Shown here: positions 18,900 to 62,444 of the stretch, piece by piece
Position numbering within the stretch: position 1 is the first letter of the stretch
How the letters are laid out: the number at the start of each line of letters is the position of its first letter
From: an uncultured Erysipelotrichaceae bacterium
GTDB taxonomy: Bacteria > Bacillota_I > Bacilli_A > RFN20 > CAG-826
Reading direction: 5' to 3'
NCBI GenBank assembly: GCA_902802355.1
Contig: CADCLU010000003.1
Location: forward strand, 3,870 to 67,869
DNA length: 64,000 nucleotides
The notes under the pieces: model-generated
Database searches by the model: none
Told to the model about the DNA's origin: nothing
What the model saw: only the letters and a program-made list of their open reading frames with translations
Translations under genes and position numbers: made by a program

Positions 18900-18903
18900 G
18901 AGT

Positions 18904-18993
18904 GGCGGAGGCGTCGAGATTTGAACTCGAGCACGGGAATCCCCGTCTAACGGTTTAGCAAACCGTCCCCTTCGGCCTCTTGGGTACGCCTCC
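18904..18993 (-). tRNA. tRNA-Ser (anticodon GCU)
   Basis: Cloverleaf with long variable arm. Anticodon stem-loop ACGGT-TTGCTAA-ACCGT. T-arm GAGTTCAAATCTC. Encoded 3' CCA. Confidence 0.85.
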
Positions 18994-30449: not shown

Positions 30450-30540
30450 GGAGAAGTACCCAAGCGGCTGAAGGGGTTAGTCTCGAAAACTGATAGTGGG
30501 CGCAAGTCCAGCGAGGGTTCAAATCCCTCCTTCTCCGCCA
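30450..30540 (+). tRNA. tRNA-Ser (anticodon CGA)
   Basis: GGAGAAG acceptor, long variable arm, anticodon loop CTCGAAA, T-arm GGGTTCAAATCCC, 3' GCCA. Confidence 0.85.
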
Positions 30541-50793: not shown

Positions 50794-50884
50794 GGAGGAA
50801 TACCCAAGTGGTCGAAGGGGCGGGCTTGGAAAGCTCGTAGGCGGGTAACACTGCGCTAGGGTTCAAATCCCTATTCCTCCGCCA
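50794..50884 (+). tRNA. tRNA-Ser (anticodon GGA)
   Basis: GGAGGAA acceptor, anticodon loop TTGGAAA, long variable arm, T-arm GGGTTCAAATCCC, GCCA end. Confidence 0.8.
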
Positions 50885-56613: not shown

Positions 56614-57117
56614 TCATTTAATGGCGTCTACTGATGTTTTCACCACTTTTAAGGCCTTGGAGAAGACCTCGAGAGTGGTTTTCTTCGGGTCGTAGGCGGC
56701 TAAGAACTCGAATTCTTTCTGGTTACGGATGAAGAAGACGATGTCACATCTTTGATAAGTCGAGATAAGACCCTTGTATGAGGCGGCATAGTTCTTCTTG
56801 AACGAGGACTCGTTGAACGGCACTCCTTCTGCGATCTGGCGGTATCTTGCACGTAGCATGGACAAGAGCCTGCCCGTGAACATGTAGTAAATGGTGATTC
56901 GATAGCCGTGACGATGCGCCTTCTGGAGATTCACCATATCTTCTGGTGCGGCGAGGGTAAGGATAGTCGCAAAAGAATCTCCACTGCTCAAACCATCTTT
57001 GAAGGACTTAACGGGGAGTGAATGGATGAAGGCGTTCTTGTAGCACTTAGCAAAGGTCGAACGACCACTGCCAGGAACCCCTGCTATGACGATTAATTGA
57101 GGTTGTTCTTCAATCAT
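56614..57117 (-). CDS. P-loop NTPase, kinase-like (167 aa)
   Basis: Walker A IVIAGVPGSGRSTFA. Short length, no lid or substrate motif recognised. Overlaps the upstream small ORF by 8 nt. Confidence 0.5.
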   Translation of the reverse strand: MIEEQPQLIVIAGVPGSGRSTFAKCYKNAFIHSLPVKSFKDGLSSGDSFATILTLAAPEDMVNLQKAHRHGYRITIYYMFTGRLLSMLRARYRQIAEGVPFNESSFKKNYAASYKGLISTYQRCDIVFFIRNQKEFEFLAAYDPKKTTLEVFSKALKVVKTSVDAIK

Positions 57118-57421
57118 GTTTCGCCACCACCTTCACGACTTGGAGTTTGTTATTGAGATACTCTTTTGTGCCATTCTTGTATTCGTCAACCAAAAAGCCG
57201 TTTTCGACATATACGAGAGGCACGCCTTTTGAGAAGTTCTTGCGCCTTGCTTTATCGATTCCGTATGAGCCAGATTCCGCTGTGAGTTTGAAAAGGTATT
57301 TCTTGTATTTCGCTGAGGAGGCTCCTCCGAGATACTGACTCTTGAGGACGCCGTTCTTGCGGTAAACCAGGTAGAAATATTCCTTTCCTTTGATGATCTT
57401 TTTGGTCAGTGTTTTCTTCAT
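57110..57421 (-). CDS. Small basic protein (103 aa, hypothetical) translationally coupled to the P-loop protein
   Basis: Lys-rich (KKTLTKKIIKGKEYFYLVYRKNG...). 8-nt overlap with the downstream gene. Confidence 0.4.
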   Translation of the reverse strand: MKKTLTKKIIKGKEYFYLVYRKNGVLKSQYLGGASSAKYKKYLFKLTAESGSYGIDKARRKNFSKGVPLVYVENGFLVDEYKNGTKEYLNNKLQVVKVVAKHD

Positions 57422-58268: not shown

Positions 58269-59441
58269 TTATTTGGCCTTATTAGCGAAGAATTCCTTAA
58301 GTTCGGAGACCTTATCAAGTTCTTCCCATGGAAGATTGAGTTCTTCTCTGCCAAAGGCACCATAGACAGTTGTGTCGAGGTATTTGAACTTAGGCTTGTT
58401 GAGAGAGAACTTCTGGATGATGGCGCCAGGTCTTGGATCGAAAACCTTCTTGATGGCCTCAAGGATGACGTCATCGCTATAACGACTGGTCTTGAAGGTC
58501 GAAATGTTAATGGAGACAGGCTCAGGAATGCCAATCGCATAAGCAAGCTGGACTTCCATTCTGGCAGCGGCTCCAGCGGCAACGAGGTTCTTGGCGATGT
58601 ATCTAGCATAGTAGCAAGCACTGCGGTCAACCTTGCTTGGATCTTTGCCAGAGAAAGCTCCGCCTCCGTGGTGGGCGCTTCCTCCATAAGTGTCGACGAT
58701 GATCTTTCTGCCAGTCAAACCGGTATCGCCAGCAGGTCCGCCGATAACGAATCTGCCAGTTGGATTAATGAGGATATTGAAGTCATCATTGAGACCGAAC
58801 TCTTTAGCGACTTCCTTCATGATCTTCTCGGAAACGAACTCACGGAATTCCTTCATGTTGGTTTCTGGGTCGTTCTGGATGGACATGAGGATGGTGTCGA
58901 TACGTGGGTGGCCATGGTTGGTGTAATCGATAGTAACCTGTGACTTCATGTCTGGTCTAGCGTGAAGGAAGGTTCCGTTCTTTCTAAGCTCGCTTGCCTT
59001 CTTCACGAGTGCGTGCGCGATTGAAATAGGAAGAGGCATGTAGTTCTTGCTCTCATTGGAGGCATAACCGAACATCATGCCTTGGTCGCCAGCACCCATC
59101 TCAAGAAGGGATCCACGCGAGACGCCCATATTGATATCTGGGCTCTGTTCTTGGACTTTGACATCGATTTTGCAGCTGTCGCATCCAATGCCTTTTTCGG
59201 CGGAAGTGTAGCCGATGTCACGAAGGACTTTTCTGGCTATTTTTTCGTAATCCGGGTGGAATTTGCTGGTGATTTCGCCTCCGATGAGGATGTATTCGTT
59301 GGTGGCGAAAACCTCACAGGCAACGTGGGAATCCGGGTCACCTGCAAGTGTAGCGTCAAGAATCGCGTCAGAGATCTGGTCGCAGACCTTGTCAGGATGT
59401 CCTTCGCTGACGGATTCGCTCGTGAATAAAATCTTTTCCAT
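58269..59441 (-). CDS. metK: S-adenosylmethionine synthetase
   Basis: GHPDKVCDQISDAILD and GGGAFSGKDPSKVDRS motifs. Confidence 0.95.
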   Translation of the reverse strand: MEKILFTSESVSEGHPDKVCDQISDAILDATLAGDPDSHVACEVFATNEYILIGGEITSKFHPDYEKIARKVLRDIGYTSAEKGIGCDSCKIDVKVQEQSPDINMGVSRGSLLEMGAGDQGMMFGYASNESKNYMPLPISIAHALVKKASELRKNGTFLHARPDMKSQVTIDYTNHGHPRIDTILMSIQNDPETNMKEFREFVSEKIMKEVAKEFGLNDDFNILINPTGRFVIGGPAGDTGLTGRKIIVDTYGGSAHHGGGAFSGKDPSKVDRSACYYARYIAKNLVAAGAAARMEVQLAYAIGIPEPVSINISTFKTSRYSDDVILEAIKKVFDPRPGAIIQKFSLNKPKFKYLDTTVYGAFGREELNLPWEELDKVSELKEFFANKAK

Positions 59442-59455
59442 ATATACCTTTCGAG

Positions 59456-59605
59456 TAAAAAGCCTCCCACCAAGTGGAAGGCTCGTTTGTCCATTCCTCT
59501 AGCATCGTTCCGAGGGTGGGCCCCGGCTAAGGACGAGCACTTACCTCTATAGAGGAGTTGCTAGCGCTTTTTCGCAGTCCTTTATAAGCGCTTCTTGATA
59601 CTAGC
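59456..59605 (-). ncRNA. SAM-responsive riboswitch (divergent SAM-I/S-box-like aptamer) with expression-platform terminator in the metK leader
   Basis: On the minus strand the P1 helix is CUAGUAUC ... GAUGCUAG. The junction motifs UAUCAAGAAG, AAAGGACUG and GCUAGCAAC align with SAM-I UAUCAAGAGAGG / GAGGGACUGG / CCGGCAACC. A terminator GAGCCUUCCAC-UUGG-UGGGAGGCU+UUUUU ends about 20 nt before the RBS AAAGGU. Confidence 0.5.
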
Positions 59606-59654
59606 TTTTCGCTCGGTCGATATTATATATGACTTTTCAAAAAGGTGTTAGGAA

Positions 59655-59690
59655 AACGATAAAAGGCCCCATTGCTAGGGCCTTAATCTT
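59655..59690. terminator. Bidirectional terminator (AAGGCCC/GGGGCCTT hairpin) after the TSCPD gene
   Basis: Stem flanked by an A-run and T-runs. Confidence 0.55.
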
Positions 59691-59952
59691 TTTTTTCTTC
59701 CTTCAAGGCTTTGAGGGCTTTGGCTAATTGGTCTGGGCAAGATGTTTTTCCTGTCCTGCTTCCGCGGCACTCAATACCTTCAAGGATTGAGATGACCTCA
59801 TCGACCTTTCTTCCCGCGCATAGACGGGCGACGCCTTGCCTGTTGCCTTGGCAGCCTCCGAGGGTTTCGACATTAACTATCGTATCCCCGTCGACGGTGA
59901 TTATCATCTCACGAGCGCAGACGTCCGTGGGCTGGTAATGGAATGTCTTCAT
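59683..59952 (-). CDS. TSCPD-domain protein (4-Cys small protein)
   Basis: TLGGCQGN...CAGR...TSCPDQ motif. Start taken at MKTFHYQ, sharing one nt with the PduL stop (TAATG). Confidence 0.6.
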   Translation of the reverse strand: MKTFHYQPTDVCAREMIITVDGDTIVNVETLGGCQGNRQGVARLCAGRKVDEVISILEGIECRGSRTGKTSCPDQLAKALKALKEEKKD

Positions 59953-60581
59953 TATTTGACGATTGTTCCGTAGATGGTGCCAGAGGCCCAAGCGGCGTTG
60001 GCTTCGTCGGTATCGATGTGCATCGCAAGAGCGTATTTCTCGCTGACGCGGATGACGGTGTCGCCGAAGATGGTCTCACGGCCGGTTCCAGAGATGAGGA
60101 CACGGACGATCTCGCCATTCTTGACGCCGAACTTCTCGGCATCGGCTGGAGTCATGTGGATATGACGTTTGGCAACGATTAGGCCTTCTTTGAGCTCGAT
60201 GGCTTTGCCATTGAGTGGGTTGACGAGTTTGATTGGGGCGCTGCCAGCGATGTCTCCGCTTTCACGAACAGGGGCATTGACCTTAAGGGTTCTGGCATCG
60301 GTTCCGCTCACTTCGACCTGGTTCTCTTTTCTCACTGGTCCAAGGATGGAAACGTTCTTGAGCATTGATTCTTTGCCGGTCTTTGGGTTGACTGGGCCGA
60401 CGATATCAAGACGGGTGTTGCTGGCGAACTGGCCTGGCTGGGAAAGTGGGTTTCTGACCTCAAGTTCAGCGTGCTTTCCAGCAGCGATTTCCTCATCGCT
60501 GAGCATAAGATAATCAAGGGTTTCCTGGGTAACGTGGATGTGCCTTGCGCTGGTTTCGACAATGAATTTTAATTCTTCCAT
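59952..60581 (-). CDS. PduL/EutD-type phosphate acyltransferase (phosphotransacylase)
   Basis: Two PduL half-domains with SARHIH and AKRHIHM motifs. Start moved to MEELKF, preceded by AGAGGAGAAAC. Confidence 0.7.
   Translation of the reverse strand: MEELKFIVETSARHIHVTQETLDYLMLSDEEIAAGKHAELEVRNPLSQPGQFASNTRLDIVGPVNPKTGKESMLKNVSILGPVRKENQVEVSGTDARTLKVNAPVRESGDIAGSAPIKLVNPLNGKAIELKEGLIVAKRHIHMTPADAEKFGVKNGEIVRVLISGTGRETIFGDTVIRVSEKYALAMHIDTDEANAAWASGTIYGTIVK

Positions 60582-62360: not shown

Positions 62361-62444
<84 letters not shown>

Follow-up and report, generated by a model that had tools for sequence, protein, structure and literature searches.

The question raised by this locus is how metK, the gene for S-adenosylmethionine (SAM) synthetase, is controlled in an uncultured Erysipelotrichaceae bacterium in which the database models for SAM riboswitches detect nothing in front of the gene. 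The locus lies in a stretch of 64,000 nucleotides (nt) from contig CADCLU010000003.1, called the window below, and its leader had been described in a first-pass annotation as a divergent SAM-I-like riboswitch or variant S-box. That call stands: in architecture, core and metK context the element follows SAM-I, and when the search filters are switched off, covariance models of the variant and of canonical SAM-I recognise each other in register. Judging from these comparisons, the element very probably senses SAM and belongs to the SAM-I superfamily, of which it would represent a form not filed before, a SAM-I without the kink-turn (K-turn). In canonical SAM-I the K-turn bends helix P2, bringing its terminal loop to the junction strand J3/4, and it is a textbook architectural RNA motif regarded as essential. 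A natural lineage that has the SAM-I pocket and four-way junction but neither the K-turn nor helix P2b would represent another route to the same binding site.

Layout of the metK leader

Since metK lies on the minus strand, the element is read as the reverse complement of the window. Its parts are listed in the direction of transcription, with the basis of the assignment in brackets; R2 is a covariance model of canonical leaders that is described further below.

59622-59651, minus strand: promoter-like site with -35 CTAACA (59651-59646), an 18-nt spacer and -10 TATAAT (59627-59622) (consensus scan, 10/12 matches)
59605-59615, minus strand: P0 5' strand CGAGCGAAAAG, a conserved flank abutting P1 on the 5' side (duplex energies)
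59499-59604, minus strand: aptamer, a four-way junction with a SAM-I-like core, from the P1 5' to the P1 3' strand (minimum free energy (MFE) fold, RNAalifold, covariation, R2 alignment)
59597-59604, minus strand: P1 5' strand CUAGUAUC (covariation)
59592-59596, minus strand: J1/2 AAGAA, containing the counterparts of G11 and A12 (alignment with the Rfam and R2 consensus sequences)
59564-59591, minus strand: P2, a plain stem GCGCUU/AAGCGC with a 16-nt loop (covariation, R2 alignment)
59577-59582, minus strand: 5' strand AAGGAC of pseudoknot PK1, inside the P2 loop (covariation, swap test)
59537-59561, minus strand: P3, with base GCA(A)C...GUGC and its bulged A, a U/UAA internal loop, and the distal hairpin CCUC-UAUA-GAGG (match to SAM-I, covariation)
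59529-59534, minus strand: PK1 3' strand GUCCUU, in J3/4 (covariation, swap test)
59510-59526, minus strand: P4 hairpin CCGGGG-CCCAC-CCUCGG (covariation)
59515-59520 with 59466-59471, minus strand: P4 loop plus one base, CCCACC, the complement of GGUGGG in the terminator loop and 3' strand; candidate antiterminator pairing AT2
59499-59509, minus strand: J4/1 AAC and P1 3' strand GAUGCUAG (59506-59499) (covariation, R2 alignment)
59491-59497 with 59476-59481, minus strand: GGAAUGG, 1 nt past P1, with CCUUCC of the terminator 5' strand; candidate antiterminator hairpin AT1
59457-59483, minus strand: intrinsic terminator AGCCUUCCAC-UUG-GUGGGAGGCU, then UUUUU (terminator scan)
59452-59462, minus strand: P0 3' strand CUUUUUACUCG, formed by the U-tract and the next bases and adjoining the ribosome-binding site (RBS)
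59439-59451, minus strand: RBS AAAGG (59451-59447) and metK start AUG (59441-59439)
58269-59441, minus strand: metK (SAM synthetase, 390 amino acids), the gene downstream of the switch (list of open reading frames, ORFs)

The promoter candidate is sigma-70-like, and in relatives a TATAAT or TGTATAAT box lies at equal distance from the element. The transcript is predicted to start near 59615, which gives a leader of about 175 nt rather than the roughly 190 nt first estimated. The MFE fold of the leader contains a four-way junction closed by CUAGUAUC and GAUGCUAG, followed by the terminator (z = -2.4). Most parts named in the first-pass annotation are recovered in this layout. Its P1 helix pairs these same two strands on the minus strand, its junction strings UAUCAAGAAG, AAAGGACUG and GCUAGCAAC are all found in the window, the GCGC...GCGC closure of an A-rich loop corresponds to GCGCUU/AAGCGC around the 16-nt loop, and its terminator hairpin before the RBS has a U-tract that ends at 59457, 5 nt from AAAGG. 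The perfect hairpin CCUCUA-UAGAGG had to be redrawn: as a 6-bp hairpin it is impossible, because no loop would remain, and the structure is CCUC-UAUA-GAGG, the distal part of P3. The pseudoknot PK1, AAGGAC (59582-59577) with GUCCUU (59534-59529), is an addition to that description.

It is worth noting that a GC-rich hairpin, AAGGCCC...GGGCCTT, lies at 59663-59684, between a TSCPD-domain gene (59683-59991, minus strand) and the metK promoter. It is flanked by T-runs on both strands and was called as a bidirectional terminator.

Database searches and relatives

When the 64-kb window was searched with Rfam 15 at gathering thresholds, two tRNAs were the only matches and there was no SAM match (the SAM threshold is 44.4 bits). 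Canonical leaders reach 60-90 bits with RF00162 in the same runs. Base composition is not the reason for this silence, because a canonical lysine riboswitch in the locus of a relative (RF00168, L125:10298-10477), in a genome that also bears the variant SAM element, scores 95 bits. As this example shows, the lineage has other riboswitches in their conventional form.

Relatives were sought through the MetK protein. A GTDB scan with MetK returned, among the matches listed, distant Firmicutes only (at most 63% identity), and these were used as an outgroup. Canonical SAM-I (RF00162, 60-90 bits) is found directly upstream of metK in 15 of the 20 distant Firmicutes loci scanned, so that the window element stands where a SAM-I would be expected. 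Closer MetK proteins, with 72-99% identity, are present in metagenomes and metagenome-assembled genomes (MAGs), under names such as 'Bacilli bacterium' and 'Tenericutes bacterium ADurb.BinA155' (unclassified Mycoplasmatota). Their contigs carry the same leader with many substitutions, and two blocks are invariant. A DNA pattern fixing GCUAGCAACUCC and GGUAAGUGC retrieved 53 further metagenomic loci, rumen-type and human-gut contigs included; 6 loci came through MetK alone, independent of the pattern. The 63 related loci in total come from uncultured Bacilli and Mycoplasmatota. In every locus with enough downstream sequence, metK follows the element, with 67-100% identity to the window MetK, and the MetK homologues contain the domains PF00438, PF02772 and PF02773. 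No canonical SAM-I was found elsewhere in the window or in the 141 kb scanned around the relatives (5-15 kb for each).

Support for the proposed fold

The structure is beyond chance, as shown chiefly by 48 distinct relatives in which it is conserved and covaries. The covariance model R1, built on the proposed fold, matches 63 of 63 loci with one hit each; complete leaders score 80-126 bits, and four that are cut by the contig end score 60-112 bits, three of them being the lowest of all. E-values from custom models such as this one are rough, here and below. Covariation was counted in a model-guided alignment of the 48 distinct sequences, where standard pairs occupy 91.4% of cells, compared with 33-39% when the partners are slid by 1-3 columns. 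Cells in which both sides have changed number 300, against 93 +/- 8 in shuffles, and none of 500 shuffles reaches 300, with the reservation that the shuffle and permutation controls used in this study take no account of phylogeny. Each pair type recurs across several sequence groups. Compensatory changes occur in 23 of 34 pairs overall, distributed as 6/8 in P1 (92% of cells paired), 4/6 in P2, 5/6 in the pseudoknot, 2/4 in distal P3 and 6/6 in P4.

The pseudoknot was also examined in a register-free swap test, in which the P2 loop and J3/4 of the same sequence form on average 5.2 consecutive Watson-Crick pairs, versus 3.3 for strands taken from different sequences; across the relatives it is built from 24 distinct pairing sequences. 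RNAalifold, run on a plain MAFFT alignment with no structure supplied, arrives at this four-way junction too, and compensatory changes are seen in 15 of its 26 pairs. Other parts of the element hardly vary. The four pairs of the P3 base show no variation in the 48 sequences and are identical in the 6 loci found through MetK alone, the GAA of J1/2 is invariant in 44 sequences, and the P4 loop CCCAC is nearly invariant, though it lies outside the search pattern.

Kinship with SAM-I

The Rfam SAM consensus can be written as cucUuAUc-aAGAG-(P2a, K-turn, P2b)-gGCAACC...GGUGCc-AAuuCCugC-(P4)-GaaagAUaAgag, and the window in the same order as CUAGUAUC-AAGAA-(GCGCUU, 16-nt loop, AAGCGC)-UAGCAACU...AGUGCU-CGUCCUUAG-(P4)-GGAACGAUGCUAG. 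The correspondence is borne out by models in both directions. With filters off, R1 aligns over its full length to 7 of 16 canonical leaders, at start -11 and end +12 relative to the Rfam hits, which equals the flank lengths of R1; the best canonical match is L001 with 35.9 bits (E = 1e-6). With default filters it gives a single marginal match in the canonical loci (L072, 20 bits), so that the homology is visible only when filters are off. In the reverse direction, R2, which was built from 15 Rfam-confirmed canonical leaders only, matches the window at 59499-59604, exactly from P1 to P1, with 26.2 bits (E = 3e-6, 501 nt searched), and it matches 10 of the 10 relatives tested in the correct place at 10-24 bits. 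The R1 and R2 alignments pass over the K-turn/P2b block and match P1, J1/2, the P2 base, P3, P4 and J4/1. P1, J1/2, the P3 base, J4/1 and P4 are positionally homologous to SAM-I.

Two of the loci deserve mention. L001:2349-2444, a canonical SAM-I, belongs to Candidatus Stoquefichus massiliensis, whose MetK is the nearest of the outgroup (63% identity). This leader combines a relatively low Rfam score (62 bits) with the highest R1 score (35.9 bits), its J3/4 and J4/1 (CCUAGC, GAACAAU) are variant-like, and it may be an evolutionary intermediate that still has the K-turn. The match in L072 (L072:2387-2512, an uncultured Peptococcaceae MAG) lies just upstream of the metK start, with slight overlap.

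A published list of highly conserved SAM-I positions includes the K-turn and P2b positions, and the triple G11-C44-G58 is described there as reading the methionine moiety (PMC3764141). In the window and the 6 MetK-found relatives the equivalents of A6, U7, A87 and U88 (P1), G11 and A12 (J1/2), and G43, C44, A45, C47, G56, U57, G58 and C59 (P3) are conserved; the equivalent of U4 is not retained. The A6-U88 equivalent is G-C in 8 sequences, a compensatory change (columns 17/133). Individual nucleotides can further be matched to the contacts with the adenine and sulfonium of SAM, which we take to be those of the 2GIS structure.

The first-pass annotation had called both P2 and P3 unlike SAM-I. 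For P2 this is correct, the K-turn and P2b being absent; for P3 it applies to the distal hairpin only, not to the base. It had also found the leader not obviously alignable to the canonical consensus, which agrees with the Rfam models for SAM, SAM-IV and SAM-I/IV being silent even at E <= 10. The lack of a significant covariance-model match, which had been named as evidence against a riboswitch, is literally what the Rfam models give; it is overturned by the custom reciprocal models together with covariation.

Absence of the kink-turn and its proposed substitute

The K-turn positions G19, A20, G35 and A36 and the P2b positions G21, A24 and C31 have no equivalents in the family. P2 is a continuous plain stem of 5-6 bp with one loop in 48 of 48 distinct sequences, in which tandem G.A pairs are impossible. 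The loop is 13-19 nt long; its middle 4-7 nt pair with J3/4, and its 3' part is A-rich (CUGNGAAA or GUAACCA). This layout of P2 loop and J3/4, as predicted, is that of an H-type pseudoknot, and it appears that the long flexible loop and the longer pseudoknot do the job of the kink. J3/4 itself starts U-Y-G and leads straight into the pseudoknot strand; the canonical contact partner of A61/A62, helix P2b, is likewise missing. A P2b-like hairpin inside the P2 loop (for example UCCG-UUA-CGGA in L086) was considered and rejected, as many members do not have it and it competes with the covarying pseudoknot.

Expression platform

The position of the terminator suggests a transcription-termination OFF switch for metK, a reading in which we have good confidence. 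SAM would bind between P1 and P3 and stabilise P1; with P1 stabilised the terminator would form, and metK transcription would stop. The terminator is conserved across the family (mean -12.6 kcal/mol), with an invariant U-run. How the terminator would be held open at low SAM is less obvious, as the classical S-box antiterminator, formed by the P1 3' strand and the terminator 5' strand, has no conserved complementarity here when inspected by eye. With moderate confidence, a bipartite antiterminator is proposed instead: without SAM, GGAA(UGG) would take the 5' strand of the terminator and the P4 loop the 3' strand, which would keep the two strands apart. Together AT1 and AT2 amount to about -16 kcal/mol before loop penalties, versus the -12.6 of the terminator.

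In AT1, GGAA sits 1-3 nt past P1 throughout the family and pairs with UUCC of the terminator 5' strand as a small hairpin. The MAFFT columns are out of register for GGAA/UUCC (72% paired), for which reason the helix was judged sequence by sequence; in such folds all four bases of UUCC are paired in the MFE structure of 27 of the 40 sequences. The inner helix varies in a manner that is apparently compensatory, by eye only (GCAC/GUGC, GCU/GGC, GCA/UGC, GG/CC, CUC/GAG). In AT2, the P4 loop CCCAC(N) faces (N)GUGGG of the terminator 3' strand, with 92.5% of cells paired. Its sixth pair covaries (U-A 18 times, A-U 10 times and C-G 3 times in the alignment count of 40 sequences), and on the terminator side this base belongs to the terminator loop, where it is unconstrained by the terminator itself. 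A provisional count, in which GUGG was mis-picked in L086, L120 and L144 and which is superseded by the alignment count, had given a Watson-Crick flanking pair in 27 of 33 distinct sequences versus 13.5 expected. In some members AT2 reaches 7-9 bp (CCACACG/CGUGUGG, UCCACACGC/GCGUGUGGA). Column 18 finds a partner in the terminator loop in 80% of sequences, compared with just 55% for its nominal partner in P4. The best match between P4 loop and terminator averages 6.1 pairs in the family versus 3.0 in canonical S-box leaders, which is the value for shuffled sequences. A U.G wobble is kept in the terminator stem of 38 out of 40 sequences, at exactly the place where the alternative pairings would give both bases a Watson-Crick partner: an A of GGAA for the U, a C of CCCAC for the G. 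If the pairing of P4 loop and terminator is functional, it would link a SAM-I aptamer to its terminator in a new manner. A further pairing of the P4 loop CCCAC, close to the RBS, would be possible in L120 and L144, where a second AGUGGGAG about 20-30 nt downstream of the terminator overlaps the ribosome-binding region CCCUAUAGUGGGAGAAGGAAU.

The link between SAM and the antiterminator may be one of geometry. SAM-induced coaxial stacking of P1 and P4 has been described for SAM-I (PMC5602112). The two capture sites flank the P1 3' strand, and the formation of P1 together with P1-P4 stacking would separate them by the full length of a rigid stack, about 14 bp. The terminator strands, joined by 3-5 nt, would be unable to span this stack and would pair with each other.

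Some points speak against this antiterminator. AT1 is weak alone (mean -5.4 kcal/mol, mean z -1.0) and, unlike in classical S-box leaders, it has no overlap with the P1 3' strand. AT2 consists of five invariant pairs and one that covaries, and the ruler geometry is a product of reasoning.

The leader contains one further helix, P0. The predicted duplex of 59605-59615 with 59452-59462 has counterparts across the family, at -10.5 kcal/mol for matched strands versus -8.3 for mismatched and -5.7 for shuffled ones. With the A/U runs left out the value is -4.22 versus a null of -3.04 +/- 0.26, which 0 of 2000 permutations reach. In L118, L142 and L081 the helix extends into the Shine-Dalgarno sequence. 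The P0 5' strand is probably the very 5' end of the transcript, and P0 is unable to form before the polymerase clears the U-tract, so that its role would lie with RNA that has been released or has read through the terminator. In the latter case the 5' end would pair with the U-tract region and close the whole leader beside the RBS; candidate roles are protection of the end or a second, translational layer of control.

Alternative readings

The simplest alternative is that the element is an ordinary, divergent member of RF00162 that the model or its filters overlook, and not a distinct variant at all. Core, junction topology, pseudoknot, terminator platform and metK context are all those of SAM-I, the reciprocal filter-free models agree, and the low Rfam score (62 bits) and highest variant-model score (36 bits) of L001 suggest a continuum. 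This alternative is nevertheless improbable, as Rfam is silent at E <= 10 for 7 independent members, even under lax filters in a 341-nt slice; the cross-scores are 10-36 bits versus 60-126 bits within each group; and the K-turn G.A pairs and P2b, which are described as conserved (PMC3764141) and essential (PMC3651934), are missing in 48 of 48 distinct sequences. A SAM-I-derived aptamer might instead have changed its ligand, to S-adenosylhomocysteine, methionine or another metabolite. Such shifts of ligand specificity have occurred in other riboswitch classes. Rare variants of a SAM aptamer are reported to sense spermidine (PMC10853860), and the periphery and J3/4 of the present element are unlike SAM-I; against this, the listed core positions in P1, J1/2 and P3 are all kept, metK, whose product makes SAM, is the sole associated gene, and an OFF terminator before metK suits feedback by SAM. 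A change of ligand would seem to have only a small chance of being correct.

Membership of SAM-I/IV (RF01725) or SAM-IV (RF00634) is more improbable still. A P2 without internal loop is found in SAM-I/IV as well (PMC2864571), and a hairpin loop that pairs downstream of P1 loosely recalls the pseudoknot PK-2 of these classes. Neither RF01725 nor RF00634 gives an Rfam match, however, and the junction contains P4, placed between J3/4 and the 3' strand of P1, whereas SAM-IV has no P4, a 3' helix P5 and a PK-2 of the P3 loop (PMC6890682); the 3' partner of the P4 loop is moreover a terminator strand and not an aptamer tail. Finally, the leader might sense no metabolite and be a protein- or tRNA-dependent leader, or an mRNA-stability element with a constitutive attenuator. 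The P0 helix, in tying up the 5' end, could serve stability, but nucleotides of the SAM-I pocket are kept in detail while MetK has diverged to 67% identity, which would otherwise be hard to explain, and no T-box or other Rfam family matched; this reading is hardly credible.

The reading as a K-turn-free SAM-I riboswitch has weights on the other side of the balance too. In a 341-nt slice around the element searched with lax filters, no Rfam model of the SAM clan matches at E <= 10, and the same holds for six relatives. SAM as the ligand is inferred from the conserved core nucleotides and the metK gene context. SAM binding was no longer detectable in the T. tengcongensis SAM-I after its K-turn, which is described as essential, had been exchanged for a simple bulge (PMC3651934), and a K-turn-free form therefore needs its own proof of folding. 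The A61/A62 of J3/4 are absent. The invariance of the P3 base is uninformative, because the search pattern fixed those bases; as the pattern fixes part of P3, the diversity of the family is under-sampled, and the covariation controls are blind to phylogeny as stated above. A stronger version of the reading makes the family a distinct subclass of the SAM-I superfamily, defined by the H-type pseudoknot in place of the K-turn, the bipartite antiterminator, a P1-P4 ruler driven by SAM and the P0 helix. As a complete package this is possible, though rather doubtful.

Relation to known systems

Eight classes of SAM riboswitch were counted as of 2026 (PMC13314739). With SAM-I (RF00162) the element shares the four-way junction P1-P4 with P4 inside the junction, the pseudoknot of P2 loop and J3/4, the core UAUC-AAGA (P1 and J1/2), GCA(A)C...GUGC (P3) and GAU (P1 3' strand), a terminator-type platform, the position before metK, and reciprocal filter-free recognition by covariance models in exact register. 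Unlike SAM-I, it has a plain P2 without K-turn and P2b, a longer pseudoknot (4-7 bp), a J3/4 without A61/A62, a U-A instead of a C-G as the first P3 pair above the bulged A, AAGAA instead of aAGAG in J1/2, a conserved P4 loop CCCAC and an antiterminator candidate without the P1 3' strand, and it is undetected by the Rfam model.

SAM-I/IV similarly has a SAM-I-type core and a P2 without internal loop or K-turn (PMC2864571), and its periphery departs from SAM-I with the core kept, according to PMC8525861, which summarises Trausch 2014. It differs in that its model gives no match here and in that it is described without PK-1 (PMC6890682), whereas PK1 covaries in the variant. The PK-2 subdomain of SAM-I/IV (PMC6890682, PMC8525861) has no clear counterpart in the variant, where the P4 loop pairs with the terminator 3' strand, which argues for the logic of an expression platform over that of an aptamer PK-2 subdomain. 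SAM-IV resembles the variant in clan, in the logic of the core and in having a second long-range pairing with sequence 3' of P1. It is unlike the variant in having no P4, a P2a/P2b with a 4-nt turn, a P5 after P1 and a PK-2 between the P3 loop and the 3' end (PMC6890682). As P4 is kept inside the junction, the variant is closest to SAM-I. Engineered SAM-I riboswitches with swapped (pk-turn) or mutated K-turns (PMC3672288; PMC3651934) address the same question of whether the K-turn is dispensable once some other device carries the P2 loop to J3/4. Those constructs keep a kinked, two-part P2, whereas the variant is a natural, lineage-wide form without a second P2 helix.

A literature search with partial coverage, which is not proof of absence, found no K-turn-less SAM-I and no description of SAM riboswitches from Mollicutes, Acholeplasma or Erysipelotrichia; the variant form is thus apparently without prior description, and databases of the Rfam type miss it. 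As Rfam 15 misses every member, the regulation of metK is unannotated in these gut, rumen and digester Bacilli and Mycoplasmatota. The 48 distinct sequences represent a comparison set for structural biologists.

Other features of the window

Two minor observations concern other parts of the window. At 56614-57421 on the minus strand, downstream of a hibernation-factor gene, a 103-amino-acid ORF without Pfam match overlaps by 8 nt a 167-amino-acid Zeta-toxin-like ORF (PF06414, E = 5e-7). Pairs of similar size (102-107 and 168-169 amino acids) occupy the same position in L081, L085 and L087, with no Pfam hit on record for those genes. ARAGORN predicts four tRNAs with long variable arms, three tRNA-Ser (GCU, CGA, GGA) and one tRNA-Leu (GAG), of which Rfam at gathering thresholds found two. 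Their positions are as follows.

18903-18993, minus strand: tRNA (ARAGORN)
30450-30540, plus strand: tRNA (ARAGORN)
50794-50884, plus strand: tRNA (ARAGORN)
62361-62444, plus strand: tRNA (ARAGORN)

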